IMG/VR virus record: IMGVR_UViG_2778261065_000029
Coordinates: 1 to 22,545 of that record
From: a virus
Taxonomy: Duplodnaviria > Heunggongvirae > Uroviricota > Caudoviricetes
Reading direction: 5' to 3' (one strand)
Length of the DNA: 22,545 bases
Of this stretch, positions 6,145-10,420 are shown piece by piece. The position numbers and the translations under genes were made by a program. Positions within the stretch are counted from its first letter, which is position 1, and each line of letters starts with the position of its first letter. Under the pieces are notes generated by a model. The model was not told the origin of the DNA, made no database searches, and saw only the letters and a list, made by a program, of their open reading frames with translations.

Positions 6145-6729
6145 TTATTGTTTGTTTTTTTCGTTCTGGTTGATGACAAATTCAATGTAACTTTCGATCT
6201 TTGCCTTCTCTGTTTCAGGTAACAATGCGTAGCGCGAGCGGTCATAGTTGATAGTTGCAGGGTCATGCGGATGAATCAGTAGTTCATATCCGTGACGCCC
6301 GAATGCAGATGCAACATTCTCCAGGGTGGAAATGGAAACGCTGACCTCATTGTTTAACAGGCGGCTGATTGTCACCTGGGCGACGCCGGATGCGCGGTGA
6401 AGTTTTCCCTGTGTTGAAAGGTCGCGGCTTTCGCTCATCCAGCGTTCCAGGTTGTGAGCCGCCAGCTGACCAATGTCGCTTGGGCCGACAGGCTGAAAAC
6501 CTTCCTGAGAAAGCGAGCGATCGATATCAAGCCAGTTACGGGGTTTATTGGCGGCAGCTTCAATTTTTCGCGCAACCTGGTCGCCGATAACCTTCTTGCC
6601 AAGAGCCCAGCGGTTTACCAGATTTGCCTGAGTTCCAAGTTTTTCTGCCATCCGCGTCTGAACACCATTGAATTCACGGTCGATCAAGTCGTTGAGATTT
6701 TGCCTGCGGACGTCCTGGATACTTTTCAT
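6145..6729 (-). CDS. CI-like immunity repressor candidate with two HTH motifs and no LexA/S24-type peptidase domain
   Basis: 194-aa ORF divergent from a Cro-like gene across an operator-rich region. HTH-like segments QTRMAEKLGTQANLVNRW and RASGVAQVTISRLLNNEVSVSISTLENVA. No Ala-Gly cleavage site or Ser/Lys dyad context recognisable. Confidence 0.6.
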   Translation of the reverse strand: MKSIQDVRRQNLNDLIDREFNGVQTRMAEKLGTQANLVNRWALGKKVIGDQVARKIEAAANKPRNWLDIDRSLSQEGFQPVGPSDIGQLAAHNLERWMSESRDLSTQGKLHRASGVAQVTISRLLNNEVSVSISTLENVASAFGRHGYELLIHPHDPATINYDRSRYALLPETEKAKIESYIEFVINQNEKNKQ

Positions 6730-6822: not shown

Positions 6823-6858
6823 TTGATTTTTGTTACCTTATGGGTGAATATTTATTAT
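6823..6858 (+). promoter_or_regulatory. Candidate PR-like promoter for the Cro-like gene
   Basis: -35-like TTGTTA (6830-6835) and -10-like TATTAT (6853-6858) with 17-bp spacing; alternative TTGATT/GAATAT pair. By-eye prediction only. Confidence 0.3.
6833..6847. promoter_or_regulatory. Degenerate operator copy TTACC-TTATG-GGTgA (immunity region, site C), overlapping the candidate PR spacer
   Basis: Lies between candidate -35 TTGTTA (6830-6835) and -10 TATTAT (6853-6858) elements. Confidence 0.4.
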
Positions 6859-6883: not shown

Positions 6884-7114
6884 ATGAGCGATAACGGACA
6901 TTTCGATTTCAAAAAGCACTGGCTTGCACTTACTCCGGATGAGCGTGAAGCCTTCGCACAGGAAGCCGGAACGACGAGTCACTATATCCAGACTCACTTA
7001 ACAGGTAAGCGAAAAATGCCAGGTAAAGTATTGATGAATGGGCTTTTTAAAGCCTGTAAAACAAGACAATGGCTGCGCTCAAAAGCAGAACTGGCATACT
7101 TCTTCTACTCATGA
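6884..7114 (+). CDS. Cro-like / YdaS-type small HTH regulator
   Basis: 76-aa ORF divergent from the repressor. HTH-like segment EREAFAQEAGTTSHYIQTHLTGKRKMP resembles Cro/YdaS-type phage regulators (from memory). Confidence 0.5.
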   Translation: MSDNGHFDFKKHWLALTPDEREAFAQEAGTTSHYIQTHLTGKRKMPGKVLMNGLFKACKTRQWLRSKAELAYFFYS

Positions 7115-7136
7115 TATCCAGCTACAACCCTCTGTA

Positions 7137-7160
7137 GACCGCCATCCGGCGGTCTTTTCA
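7137..7160 (+). terminator. Intrinsic terminator after the Cro-like gene
   Basis: Hairpin GACCGCC-ATCC-GGCGGTC followed by TTTTCA. Confidence 0.5.
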
Positions 7161-7264: not shown

Positions 7265-7465
7265 ATGGAAATCATTACACGTATTGATGCCGCAAAGCGC
7301 GGACTTAAACGCTACTACACCGGAAAACCATGTAAGCACGGACATGACAGTGAACGCTGGGTTTACAACGGACACTGTGTTGAGTGCACCATGGAATCAA
7401 ACCGTCGCATTAGGGCAGAGATTAAGCAGATCATGATTAATTCCTCCCCACAACATTCAAGCTGA
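7265..7465 (+). CDS. Small Cys/His-containing protein (possible zinc-binding regulator), function unknown
   Basis: 66-aa ORF from an internal ATG (MEIITRIDAAKRG...) with the pattern CKHGH...CVEC. The track's longer N-terminal extension lacks support. Confidence 0.45.
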   Translation: MEIITRIDAAKRGLKRYYTGKPCKHGHDSERWVYNGHCVECTMESNRRIRAEIKQIMINSSPQHSS

Positions 7466-7480
7466 TAGCGGAGATTAATC

Positions 7481-8272
7481 ATGAGCAGACATGCAACAGA
7501 TTGGGCCTGGGAGACAGATCCAGGCAGCTCATCATTAAAGCTCATACTGCTCTCGATGGCTGACAGAGCCGATGAATATAACCTCTGCTACCCCAGCATA
7601 GAACGCCTCGTTAAAGACACTTGCCTGAATAAAAAAACCGTGCAGGCCGGGCTTATATCGCTCATGAAAATGGGGCTTATTTCAGATACCGGAGAGAGAA
7701 AGGGAGCGACGAAAAGAGTGCGGGTTTTCTCTCTTAATATAACCAAAAACGGGAACATTAAAGGCAACCGGGAAGGGAGTAATGAACCCGAAAACGGAAA
7801 TGTTACCGAAAACGGGAATATACCCAAAAACGGGATGTTGAATGATCCCAAAAACGGGATCCAGAACCAGTCATATAACCAGTCATTTAACCAAGAGAGG
7901 GGGAGCAGGACAAAAACCGGGGATTCTGTGCCTCATGACCCCGGCGCAAACAACGCCGTGATGAATAACTTTGTTCCTCCTGGTGGGCCAGGGCAATTAG
8001 GCAAATTTGTCATGCATGAACAATGGCAACCATCAGATGACTTTCTTCGGAAAAGCTCATTGCAGGGAATCTACCTGGACAGTCTGCCAACGGCACAGGA
8101 ACTTGCAGAGTTCAGAATTTACTGGATGGCTGAGGGTAAGGCATACCATCAGGCACAGTGGGAGCAGAAGCTGGCAAGGCGGCTGCAGATTAGCAGACAG
8201 AAGCAATCAACATTACCTGATAACAACGTTCCGCACTGGAACAGCCCTGAAGCGTGGGAGGATTTCTTGTGA
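7481..8272 (+). CDS. Replication initiator: N-terminal winged-HTH domain fused to a C-terminal DnaT-like domain
   Basis: GGAG ribosome-binding site 7 nt upstream. C-terminal KFVMHEQWQPSDDFL...EFRIYWMAEGKAYHQAQWEQKLARRLQ closely parallels the E. coli DnaT C-terminus as recalled (KFAMYPDWQPDADFI...[27 protein letters not shown]). Central linker is N/G/K-rich repeats. Confidence 0.75.
   Translation: MSRHATDWAWETDPGSSSLKLILLSMADRADEYNLCYPSIERLVKDTCLNKKTVQAGLISLMKMGLISDTGERKGATKRVRVFSLNITKNGNIKGNREGSNEPENGNVTENGNIPKNGMLNDPKNGIQNQSYNQSFNQERGSRTKTGDSVPHDPGANNAVMNNFVPPGGPGQLGKFVMHEQWQPSDDFLRKSSLQGIYLDSLPTAQELAEFRIYWMAEGKAYHQAQWEQKLARRLQISRQKQSTLPDNNVPHWNSPEAWEDFL
7743..7859. repeat. Five iteron-like direct repeats CC(G/C)AAAACGG(G)A inside the initiator gene (candidate origin)
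   Basis: Copies start at about 7743, 7788, 7806, 7823 and 7847, spaced 17-45 bp; they encode the KNGN peptide repeats. Confidence 0.5.
7865..7895. repeat. Tandem 12-bp repeats AACCAGTCAT(A/T)T (two good copies plus a degenerate third)
   Basis: AACCAGTCATAT AACCAGTCATTT AACCAAG... immediately following the iteron block. Confidence 0.45.
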
Positions 8273-9054
8273 ACAACGTTTTTACCGCGATACAAAACCG
8301 TGACGGAGAAGCCCTTTCTCGCATGTCAGGTTATGAGCATCAATACGTCAACAATGACAATGTGGTGAACATGTCAGCAGAGAGGCTTGTTGATGCCCTT
8401 TTCAAACAGCTGAAACAACTGTTTCCGGCGGCAGTAGTAACCAACCTGAAGACGCCAGAGCAGGAAGTTGCTGCAAAACAGCAGTGGATTGCTGCGTTTG
8501 CCGAAGGTGGGATCCGAACCCGTGAACAGGTTTCTGCTGGTATGCGCCACGCTCGCGCCAGTGAGTCTCCGTTCTGGCCGTCGCCAGGGCAATTCATCAA
8601 GTGGTGTAAAGACAGCAAGATGGTTCTTGGCGTCACCATTGACGATGTGATGGCGGAGTTTCACCGGTACAGCAAGGAAAAAAGTTTATATCCTGGTGGT
8701 CCCGAAAGATTCCCGTGGCGACATCCGGTTATGTACTGGGTCGTATGTGATACCCGCCGTGCAATGTATCAGCGCCAGCTTAGCGAGATTGAGGTTGAGA
8801 AACACGCGCGCAGGCTGCTCGATGATTGGGCGAAAAAGGTGGCTTCCGGACAGCAGATACCCGATCCGGTGATCAGCATACAGGCAAAGCCAGAGCCCAT
8901 GAGTACGCCTCCGGACACAGGGAGAGACGTTTACCATCCACCAGGGCGAAGTTTCGGGTGTATGCCTAACGCCGCCACCCTGGGGGGAATAACACCGGCG
9001 CAGTGGCTAATGGAGGAATACAGGCGGGGAAAGGCGGCAGGATTTATCAAGTAA
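8269..9054 (+). CDS. Lambda P-like replicative helicase loader
   Basis: Segment QQWIAAFAEGGIRTREQVSAGMRHARASESPFWPSPGQFIKWCKD parallels lambda P (RRQWVLAFRENGITTMEQVNAGMRVARRQNRPFLPSPGQFVAWCRE, from memory). GTG start overlaps the initiator stop (GTGA), with GGGAGGA upstream. Confidence 0.75.
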   Translation: MNNVFTAIQNRDGEALSRMSGYEHQYVNNDNVVNMSAERLVDALFKQLKQLFPAAVVTNLKTPEQEVAAKQQWIAAFAEGGIRTREQVSAGMRHARASESPFWPSPGQFIKWCKDSKMVLGVTIDDVMAEFHRYSKEKSLYPGGPERFPWRHPVMYWVVCDTRRAMYQRQLSEIEVEKHARRLLDDWAKKVASGQQIPDPVISIQAKPEPMSTPPDTGRDVYHPPGRSFGCMPNAATLGGITPAQWLMEEYRRGKAAGFIK

Positions 9055-9059
9055 TACCA

Positions 9060-9080
9060 GCGCGATAGCGCATTTTTTTA
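9060..9080 (+). terminator. Weak terminator-like hairpin after the P-like gene
   Basis: GCGC-GATA-GCGC followed by ATTTTTTT; stem of only 4 bp. Confidence 0.3.
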
Positions 9081-9091
9081 CGTCTCAATAA

Positions 9092-9106
9092 TTACCTATA
9101 AGGTAA
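9092..9106. promoter_or_regulatory. Operator-like palindrome TTACC-TATAA-GGTAA
   Basis: Perfect copy upstream of the DUF1064 operon. Confidence 0.5.
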
Positions 9107-9153
9107 CAAAATATTCTAAACTCTATTGATTTAGTGTCTTATGTGGTTTTTAA

Positions 9154-9168
9154 TTACCTCAGAGGTAA
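9154..9168. promoter_or_regulatory. Operator-like palindrome TTACC-TCAGA-GGTAA overlapping the ribosome-binding site of the next gene
   Basis: Perfect copy ending 3 nt before ATG 9172; its GAGGT half doubles as the Shine-Dalgarno sequence. Confidence 0.5.
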
Positions 9169-9171
9169 ATC

Positions 9172-9519
9172 ATGAGAAAACAGATACAGGCTCTTGGTCG
9201 ACTCAAAACAGGCCAGATGAACAAAACAGAATCTGCGTATTGCCAGCACCTTGAGCAGCGTAAACGTGCAGGGGAAATCGCCTGGTATCGATTCGAGGGT
9301 ATCAAGCTGCGGTTAGCTGACAACACGTTCTATACGCCCGATTTCGCTGTGATGCTCGCCACCGGCGAGATGGAGCTGCACGAAGTGAAAGGGGGATTCT
9401 GGACCGATGACGCCAGAGTGAAAACCAAAGTCGCCGCAGATCAGTATCCGTTCCGAATCATCGGGGTAACGGTTAAGCCAAAGAAAGCAGGTGGTGGCTG
9501 GAACATCGAAGAGTTCTGA
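9172..9519 (+). CDS. DUF1064-like phage protein
   Basis: 115-aa ORF with the pattern YTPDF...HEVKG and a basic N-terminus, matching my recollection of DUF1064 family proteins. Confidence 0.55.
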   Translation: MRKQIQALGRLKTGQMNKTESAYCQHLEQRKRAGEIAWYRFEGIKLRLADNTFYTPDFAVMLATGEMELHEVKGGFWTDDARVKTKVAADQYPFRIIGVTVKPKKAGGGWNIEEF

Positions 9520-9580
9520 ATCGACGATCTTTTTAGTTATCAATGTAATCAATAAGTTATGTGGATAAGCGAGGGTAAAG

Positions 9581-10420
9581 ATGGAAAGTAATATCAAAGG
9601 GTTAGTTTCCGCCGGGCATGAGATGGCTTCGGAACTGAAAGCAGAATGTGGTGCCGTTGATATGCGCAGTGTGGCAAAGCTGATCAGCGATTTGGCAACG
9701 CAACTGGAAGTGCAACTGGTGCGTGCTAATGCGCAGGACGAAGACAACCAGAGAGCCATTGAGTCAATTAAACAGGCTGATTCGGCTGTTAAGTTGGCAC
9801 ACGAGAAGTTTTCGGCGCTGGCGGCGAAACGTGCAATTCCAGCAATGGAACGCCTGTTAATGTTGCCAGCTGATGATGATTTGTTAAGTGAACAGGAACT
9901 TAAAGATTACGGTGTGGATATTGATGCGCTCAACGCCTTCAAATTTCTGGCCGGACCAGAAACCGTGCTGGCACTACTGGATGAACGGGAAAGAAACCAG
10001 CAATACATCAAACGCCGTGACCAGGAGAACGAGGATATTGCGCTAACGGTAGGGAAGCTGAGAGTTGAGCTTGAGGAAGCAAAATCAAAACTCAACGAGC
10101 AGCGTGAGTATTACGAAGGTGTTATCTCGGATGGAAGTAAGCGCATAGCAGAACTGGAAGCGCGGGAAATAAAACCAGCCAAAGGTGAAGTTCTGGTCGT
10201 TGTATCTGGTTTTACTGGTTGCGGAAAAAGCGCCATTGCCGGGGAAATAGAAATCGCGATGAAGGCTATTGGTGTACCGGTTAAGTGGACTAATGGCGAT
10301 GCAGAAAAGCGCATGACTGGCGCTGACTGGCTGACTGCGATTGAGATGTACAAACCAACTGTGCGCATCGTGGAAGTTAATGTGCCCCGCGCCGCTGGCA
10401 TTCGCATCAAAGGAAAGTGA
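9581..10420 (+). CDS. Hypothetical coiled-coil protein with a C-terminal P-loop-like motif (GFTGCGKS)
   Basis: 279-aa ORF with GAGGG ribosome-binding site. Central E/K-rich coiled-coil segment and C-terminal VVVSGFTGCGKSAIAGE resembling a Walker A motif. Confidence 0.55.
   Translation: MESNIKGLVSAGHEMASELKAECGAVDMRSVAKLISDLATQLEVQLVRANAQDEDNQRAIESIKQADSAVKLAHEKFSALAAKRAIPAMERLLMLPADDDLLSEQELKDYGVDIDALNAFKFLAGPETVLALLDERERNQQYIKRRDQENEDIALTVGKLRVELEEAKSKLNEQREYYEGVISDGSKRIAELEAREIKPAKGEVLVVVSGFTGCGKSAIAGEIEIAMKAIGVPVKWTNGDAEKRMTGADWLTAIEMYKPTVRIVEVNVPRAAGIRIKGK

Follow-up and report, generated by a model that had tools for sequence, protein, structure and literature searches.

Does the replication initiator gene of a phiV10-like prophage contain the origin from which the prophage itself replicates? 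This question was raised by a 22,545-nucleotide stretch of Caudoviricetes DNA (IMG/VR record IMGVR_UViG_2778261065_000029, positions 1 to 22,545; referred to here as the window), in which an initial annotation had proposed iteron-like tandem repeats within the initiator gene as a candidate origin. The window is a phiV10-like E. coli prophage. The initiator locus is 94-99% identical in the E. coli O157 phage phiV10 (Uetakevirus), and a 94-99% identical gene is present in prophages of 424 of 5426 complete E. coli genomes (~8%). Our analysis suggests that positions 7740-7895 are very probably the vegetative replication origin of this prophage, laid out on the lambda plan inside the initiator's own gene. 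The candidate origin gains support from its architecture and from positional homology; origin activity itself, together with binding, unwinding, and loader recruitment, we infer from sequence. An intragenic origin is an expected kind of element, and the initiator family that carries this one is little studied.

Two repeat arrays lie in the linker-coding part of the initiator gene

The initiator gene (7481..8272, plus strand) encodes a 263-residue protein composed of a winged-helix N-terminal domain, a predicted disordered linker coded by repeats, and a DnaT-like C-terminal domain. A match to PHROG 1032 ("replication initiation protein") at E 2e-102 agrees with the earlier assignment of the gene as a replication initiator. 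Pfam identified HTH_36 at residues 18-67 (E 1.7e-10) and the DnaT DNA-binding domain at residues 176-244 (E 1.1e-15), and the repeats at 7740-7895 fall between the parts of the open reading frame (ORF) that encode these two domains.

Reading of the sequence revealed five plus-strand copies of the iteron core CC[AG]AAAACGG, at 7743-7752, 7788-7797, 7806-7815, 7824-7833, and 7848-7857, with start-to-start distances of 45, 18, 18, and 24. A longer word, CC(A/G)AAAACGG(G/A)A, likewise occurs in five copies that span 7743-7859. The full iterons are 16 bp long and follow the dyad-symmetric consensus (A/G)T(C/A)CC-(A/G)AAAAC-GG(G/T)A(C/T). On the plus strand they are iteron 1 at 7740..7755 (TAACCAAAAACGGGAA), iteron 2 at 7785..7800 (AACCCGAAAACGGAAA), iteron 3 at 7803..7818 (TTACCGAAAACGGGAA), iteron 4 at 7821..7836 (TACCCAAAAACGGGAT), and iteron 5 at 7845..7860 (ATCCCAAAAACGGGAT), the last of which is the best dyad of the five, with arms GATCCC/GGGATC. 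When at most one mismatch was allowed, the pattern CCSAAAACGGRA had 6 matches in the 22.5-kb window, 5 of them within the array, against 0.46 expected, and none of 100 shuffles reached 6 matches. Tandem Repeats Finder reported part of this array (7786-7835, period 18, 2.8 copies) and also a second one (7865-7893, period 12, 2.4 copies, 94% matches). The second array, at 7864..7895 on the plus strand, consists of three (G/T)AACC 12-mers that begin with GAACC at 7864, TAACC at 7876, and TAACC at 7888 (GAACCAGTCATA TAACCAGTCATT TAACCAAG), and it is a candidate unwinding or helicase-entry element. Sequence reading, pattern statistics, and Tandem Repeats Finder thus reproduce the repeat coordinates, the copy number, and the KNGN/NQS linker described initially.

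The AlphaFold2 model contains a confident winged helix at residues 1-89, with predicted local distance difference test (pLDDT) scores of 83-92, in which the predicted recognition helix spans residues 51-63 and the predicted wing strands span residues 67-74 and 79-85. Residues 90 to ~185, the stretch coded by the repeats, have a pLDDT of ~30 and no secondary structure, which suggests that the repeats encode a disordered tether. The Pfam bounds and this modeled disorder are in line with the proposed location of the repeats in a linker between HTH and DnaT-like domains. On the basis of AlphaFold2, Foldseek, and covariation, the N-terminal winged-helix domain (residues 1-88; 7481..7744, plus strand) is the predicted iteron-binding module; a Foldseek search of the model against PDB returned generic dimeric winged-helix regulators, none at E<1e-3. 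The DnaT-like C-terminal domain (residues 172-257; 7994..8251, plus strand) is supported by Pfam PF17948 and by a phmmer search of PDB, in which the C-terminal 86 residues matched the C-terminal single-stranded DNA-binding domain of E. coli DnaT (9zbt/6aep/4ou6) at E 6e-21.

Two minor features of the first array were also observed. Among close relatives, the initiator gene varies most in the 45-bp gap between iterons 1 and 2, according to a per-site diversity profile that is shallow and partly misaligned, and this gap contains a degenerate CC-N6-GG site at 7768-7777 (CCGGGAAGGG) that may be a decayed iteron. In addition, two GATC (Dam) sites flank iteron 5 at 7844-7861 (GATCCCAAAAACGGGATC), where about one per 250 nucleotides (nt) would be expected, and every additional 24-bp unit in relatives brings one more GATC. 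Methylation or SeqA input at the last iteron is possible.

The repeats accompany the N-terminal domain across a large family

The initiator gene was compared with 50,697 phage records by sensitive blastn (65-70% sensitivity). Beyond close E. coli relatives, only query positions 301-415 (window 7781-7895) were matched, by Vibrio anguillarum and Edwardsiella phages at 73-78% identity. The N-domains of these phages are 56-57% identical at the protein level, and the phages have the same repeats and unrelated C termini. Low complexity was considered as the cause of the Vibrio phage match and was rejected, as the shared words are specific and include the nonrepetitive junction CAGAACCAGTCAT. Homologous-protein searches yielded short fragments only for the N-domain alone and near-identical E. 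coli relatives only for the full protein. Relatives were gathered in three sets, comprising 13 diverse phage loci found by tblastn, 80 loci from one genome per species, and 150 representatives from a 1.84-billion-protein library. The family-wide DNA analysis drew on 91 loci from Enterobacterales, Vibrio, Acinetobacter, Pseudoalteromonas, Marinomonas, Desulfovibrio, Sphingobium, and others, and 80 near-identical loci from viral contigs were used for iteron copy-number variation only.

Across the 91 loci, the density of CC-N6-GG sites is 11.2 per kb in the linker and 0.25 per kb in the flanking sequence. The majority of loci carry between 3 and 7 sites, most commonly 4-5, and the spacings between them cluster at 17-18 and 24-25 bp. 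The iterons are followed by repeats of the pentamer GAAYC; of 75 distinct tails, 65 have the first of these repeats exactly 6 nt past the last iteron. The spacing to later copies is 12 bp in 89 cases and 13 bp in 46, and at least two copies are present in 73 of 77 tails. The block usually contains three copies, on the coding strand, whatever loader or helicase gene comes next. The window fits this spacing: its last core ends at 7857, and its pentamers begin at 7864, 7876, and 7888. The family-wide 12/13-mer element defined by GAAYC appears to be undescribed so far. Among near-identical E. coli prophages, iteron number ranges from 5 to 9; the 18-bp units and the 24-bp units vary independently of each other, and the window, with five iterons, is at the lower end of the range.

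In the 1.84-billion-protein library, 3732 clusters (50% identity) match the N-domain at E<=1e-3, and the domain is at or near the N terminus in nearly all of the best 150 of these. All of the 119 representatives that were scanned contain HTH_36, whereas a DnaT C-domain was found in 17 and Phg_2220_C in 2, the remainder being without a known C-domain. Overall, at least four C termini (DnaT-like, lambda-O C-domain, Phg_2220_C, and unknown) are found attached to the N-domain/repeat module, and the joints lie exactly where the GAAYC block ends. The genes downstream of the initiator in relatives encode P-type loaders, DnaB-type helicases, and others.

One relative, from a Granulosicoccaceae metagenome-assembled genome, has an initiator ORF (1501-1950 of that locus) that stops after 149 residues, with stop codons within the GAAYC repeats (GGAACCTATCAGTAGGAACCTATCAGTAG). 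Either the gene has been truncated or the origin has been retained without the C-domain.

The repeats are conserved as DNA rather than as protein code

The same DNA words are read in different frames among the relatives. Counted by the first C of the core, 277 sites begin at codon position 2, 63 at position 1, and 56 at position 3; iterons use at least two reading frames in 61 of 84 loci; and 144 of 312 iteron spacings (46%) are not multiples of 3. The core is thus read in three frames as PKNG-, PKTE-, and (T/S)QKR-type peptides. Similarly, GAAYC begins at codon position 3 in 130 cases and at position 1 in 100, giving QN(L/Q)(S/P) or EP(I/V)x, and phage Her reads its repeats as CAG AAC CAG TCA TTA GAA CCA GTC ATA GAA CCA.

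Synonymous codon choice was compared between [PTSA][KE]NG motifs, which were defined by peptide alone with each distinct context counted once, and the rest of the same genes as a control. The Lys/Glu codon is AAA/GAA in all 101 motif cases versus 63% elsewhere (p 5e-20), and the Asn codon is AAC in 89% versus 49% (p 2e-15). GGC is the Gly codon in 1 of 101 motif cases versus 27% elsewhere, and the Pro codon is CCC in 77 of 77.

The arms of the iterons also match each other. Outside CC/GG, complementary bases occupy the three adjoining positions in 45%, 68%, and 60% of unique sites versus 34%, 50%, and 35% in shuffles (z 4.6, 9.6, and 10.1). The matched arms differ between lineages (GTACC/GGTAC, GTCCC/GGGAC, ATCCC/GGGAT, GTTCC/GGAAC, and GTGCC/GGCAC), and the window residues with the highest mutual information with arm class are Q55, A76, K51, and I59. 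In the model, K51, Q55, and I59 are placed at i, i+4, and i+8 on one face of the predicted recognition helix, and A76 would form the wing tip.

Use of three frames, fixed synonymous positions, complementary arms, and arm types that track recognition-helix and wing residues indicate that the iterons and GAAYC repeats are selected as DNA and not as protein code. DNA-level selection had been suggested for the window in the first place; frame independence, the fixed synonymous codons, the complementary dyad arms, and the DNA-level conservation of the repeat stretch alone in the Vibrio and Edwardsiella phages all speak for it.

The arrays take the positions of the lambda iterons and AT-rich tract

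The region in the window is positionally equivalent to the lambda origin. As in lambda, it lies inside the initiator gene between a DNA-binding N-domain and a C-domain (which binds the loader in lambda O), and it contains 4-6 dyad-symmetric, A-tract-centered iterons (lambda ATCCCTCAAAACGAGGGA, window ATCCCAAAAACGGGAT) that are coding irrespective of frame. In O, the annotated iterons of lambda (ATCCCTCAAAACGAGGGA and variants) begin at codon positions 1, 3, 3, and 2, and the AT-rich tract comes after them. Past its iterons, toward the C-terminal part of the gene, the window likewise has a tract that is A-rich in the coding strand and comparatively unstable, though less so than that of lambda and not the least stable part of the gene. 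In both systems, a P-family loader gene is directly downstream. Iteron number differs between relatives here as it does between lambda, with 4 iterons, and Stx phages, with 6 (PMC7466680). In lambda, the intragenic layout is a proven origin (PMC7466680).

Other features distinguish the two. The N-domain in the window is Pfam HTH_36 rather than Phage_rep_O (PF04492), and the C-domain is DnaT-like rather than a lambda-O C-domain. The window iterons are ~16 bp with a CC-N6-GG core, whereas those of lambda are 18-19 bp, and three phased (G/T)AACC 12-mers with ~60% A+T stand in place of the AT-rich tract. Moreover, the candidate origin in the window is recognized from its sequence alone.

Edwardsiella phage GF-2 is a natural chimera that links the two systems. 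Its initiator combines an HTH_36 N-domain, ATCCCAAAATTGGGAT iterons, and GAAYC repeats with a lambda-O C-domain that is 62% identical to lambda O residues 156-299 over 144 residues (E 2e-67). In the DNA alignment, the GAAYC block of GF-2 takes the place of the lambda AT-rich tract, between the last iteron and a palindrome common to both phages, TC(A/C)GAGAATTCTG(G/A)CGAATCCTC(T/A)GA. No other observation argues as strongly that the second array corresponds to the unwinding region, in which case it would be expected to have a role in unwinding.

The window has an inverted repeat of its own, CCGGGG-N16-CCCCGG, at 7917-7944, directly to the right of the 12-mers. It resembles in position and geometry the TCAGAG-N14-CTCTGA palindrome of lambda, which is to the right of the AT-rich tract, and its conservation in phiV10 and Superficieibacter is only partial.

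P22 offers a second annotated example of the intragenic layout proposed initially. The P22 rep_origin lies inside gene 18 and is annotated as "similar to phage lambda." As in the window, it directly follows the winged-helix N-domain and consists of dyad iterons (TCGGTAAAA...TTTACCGA) and, after them, two copies of a short direct repeat (ACAAAAGACAATA) at a period of ~13 bp. Unlike the initiator in the window, gp18 belongs to Phage_rep_O, and the gene after it encodes a DnaB-type helicase rather than a P-type loader; the iteron and repeat sequences are unrelated.

Iteron plasmids such as pPS10, R6K, RK2, F, and P1 encode winged-helix Rep proteins that bind repeats beside an unwinding element, often of phased 13-mers. 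Plasmid iterons are usually direct repeats of 17-22 bp outside the rep gene, commonly with DnaA boxes. In contrast, the window has dyad sites within the gene, and its DnaA boxes are no more frequent than chance predicts, with 1 match in 22.5 kb versus 1.9 expected, 1.7 kb from the repeats.

The domain architecture of the initiator also recalls that of a chromosomal pair. DopC and DopE are encoded by chromosomal genes of Cellvibrionales and Oceanospirillales that derive from lambdoid O/P (Brezellec et al. 2017, PMC5509034), and, like the locus studied here, they pair a protein with an HTH_36 N-domain and a DnaT C-terminal domain with a P-family gene. According to the authors, dopC has no iteron-like sequences and, by GC skew, no origin activity (PMC5509034). 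By this published description, it differs from the gene in the window, which is in a prophage and has the full set of iterons and GAAYC repeats; the latter looks like the phage-borne, origin-bearing form of the DopC/DopE pair.

A locus from Marinobacterium stanieri (Oceanospirillales; 1501-2415 of that locus) encodes HTH_36 and, as judged by eye, a DnaT-like C terminus, and it has clear iterons, which bear on the published claim that related dopC genes lack iterons. The translation of the next ORF, also read by eye, is unlike a P-type loader.

A model for initiation and the evidence that weighs against it

Read in this way, the element is a lambda-type intragenic origin in function and layout, within a distinct initiator family. 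We propose that dimers of the N-terminal winged helix would bind the five dyad 16-bp iterons to form an O-some-like nucleoprotein complex. This complex would destabilize the adjoining, moderately A+T-rich 12-mers at 7864-7895, 6 nt past the last iteron. The DnaT-like C-domain, held on a disordered linker of ~90 residues that is encoded by the repeats, would then engage the exposed single strand, recruit the complex of P-like loader and host DnaB, or both. Rightward early transcription is expected to run through the site.

The 12-mer block is among the least stable 2.4-4% of the window as duplex. It is tempting to speculate that the GAAYC 12/13-mers are a sequence-specific origin-opening or helicase-entry signal of HTH_36-type initiators across Proteobacteria, from E. 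coli to Acinetobacter, Desulfovibrio, and Sphingobium, although we regard this broader idea as tentative and somewhat less than probable. If it is true, the GAAYC block would act as 13-mers or DnaA-trios do at oriC and could be read by a conserved initiator surface, not merely as A+T-rich DNA, and the domesticated DopC/DopE pair would descend from exactly such a phage module.

Several observations weigh against an origin of this kind. The 12-mer block (measured over 7859-7898) is only 57-62% A+T, its nearest-neighbor stability is ~2 standard deviations below the window mean versus ~3 for the tract of lambda, and the least stable stretch of the gene is directly to the left of iteron 1 (~7723-7765). 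Pfam finds only HTH_36 and DnaT in the initiator, whereas lambda O and P22 gp18 match PF04492, and a comparison of the family with lambda O residues 1-118 by hhalign was not significant (E 0.012, probability 3.7%). The five iterons in the window share one reading frame, and for this reason the frame argument rests on the relatives. The arm-complementarity and residue-covariation statistics ignore shared ancestry; we consider the frame and synonymous-site tests robust and the dyad and covariation tests supportive only. A literature search returned nothing specific on the origins of phiV10 or epsilon15 or on DnaT-type phage initiators with iterons, and it located no experimental data for the initiator family. 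One literature lead, PMC2647930, proved to concern an unrelated plasmid-like island. HHpred has been reported to link the N termini of lambda O and an HTH_36/DnaT-C protein (PMC5509034), and because our own profile comparison was not significant, homology to lambda O rests on that published statement.

Alternative roles for the repeats

The iterons could be genuine initiator-binding sites that serve mainly for control, with the early operon autoregulated through roadblock, titration, or handcuffing and with opening and helicase loading taking place elsewhere, for example, in the A+T-rich intergenic region at 9055-9171. Iterons of plasmids also serve in copy control, and such double duty is a general precedent for this idea. 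The least stable 60-mer of the window, at 9073, is in this intergenic region just past the loader gene, which also contains two TTACCT-N4-AGGTAA palindromes, and the block beside the iterons is only modestly A+T-rich. However, 9055-9171 lacks any array of at least three repeats as well as significant DnaA boxes, and it resembles a terminator followed by a promoter/operator. Furthermore, the GAAYC repeats are strictly placed by the last iteron and kept family-wide whatever gene follows, and those of GF-2 replace the known unwinding tract of lambda position for position. We consider a role mainly in control improbable and favor an origin at 7740-7895.

Within 9055-9171, a terminator-like GCGCGATAGCGC is followed by a T-run. 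The two TTACCT-N4-AGGTAA palindromes, at 9091-9107 and 9153-9169, look like an operator pair for an unknown regulator, and the second is directly upstream of the DUF1064/Holliday-junction-resolvase-like gene described below.

A second possibility is that the conserved linker DNA is mainly a junction at which N- and C-terminal initiator modules are swapped by homologous recombination, as the joining of the module to at least four different C termini exactly at the end of the GAAYC block might suggest. Such a junction leaves unexplained the dyad symmetry, the covariation with the recognition helix, the fixed 6-nt offset, and the 12/13-bp periodicity, and in lambda, DNA laid out in this way has been proven to be an origin (PMC7466680). 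The swapping of modules is explained more simply as a consequence of conserved origin DNA, and we regard a primary role as a junction as highly unlikely.

Least credible of all is that the repeats are only a low-complexity, flexible protein linker rich in Asn, Gly, Lys, and Pro that expands and contracts by slippage and has no function as DNA: the region does encode a predicted disordered linker, its copy number varies among close relatives, and all copies in the window are in frame, but this explanation is contradicted by the use of three frames for the same DNA words to encode different peptides (PKNG, (T/S)QKR, and PKTE; QNLP versus EPIS) with 46% of spacings not multiples of 3, by the fixation of synonymous positions, and by a dyad symmetry that has no coding rationale.

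Implications for phage replication

The N-domain family of the initiator comprises thousands of sequence clusters, and our literature search found no described origin for it. The order of HTH_36 N-domain, CC-N6-GG dyads, and GAAYC repeats could provide an annotation rule for origins in many temperate phages of Proteobacteria. The putative origin and its specificity determinants are a target for studying or blocking the replication of phiV10-like, serotype-converting prophages of E. coli O157. The natural pairs of iterons and recognition helices are material for studies of winged-helix specificity, and compact, orthogonal origin-initiator cassettes would be useful in plasmid design. The region is also an example of coding sequence constrained mainly as DNA, which is relevant to gene-level selection analyses and to codon-recoding projects. 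For specialists in phage replication, the main appeal lies in the family-wide GAAYC element and the clear DNA-level constraint inside a coding region.

Genes surrounding the initiator

The gene directly downstream (8269..9054, plus strand) encodes a lambda-P-family helicase loader, with matches to PF06992 (E 1.5e-56) and to PHROG 109, P-like helicase loader (E 5e-92). Its GTG start overlaps the initiator stop, per the phiV10 annotation; the longest ORF begins at 8254. Upstream, a repressor-like double-HTH protein (6145..6729, minus strand; Pfam HTH_3 and the phiV10p40 annotation) is encoded divergently from the rightward early operon that includes the initiator. The first gene of this operon (6884..7114, plus strand) belongs to a transcription regulator family (PHROG 35), and transcription from it would cross the repeats. 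Two further signals, a promoter-like site (6830-6858) and a hairpin resembling a terminator (7136-7155), are of kinds that occur at chance-level counts.

Directly upstream of the initiator, positions 7265-7465 contain a conserved 66-residue ORF with a Cys/His-rich motif, CKHGH...CVEC, which corresponds to phiV10p42 and matches PHROG 1081, of unknown function, at E 8e-43. Past the replication genes, 9172-9519 encodes a DUF1064 protein (Pfam) that matches a Holliday junction resolvase PHROG (E 1e-43). The single perfect DnaA box of the window, TTATCCACA, is located at 9560-9568 on the minus strand, between the DUF1064 gene and the ORF at 9581.

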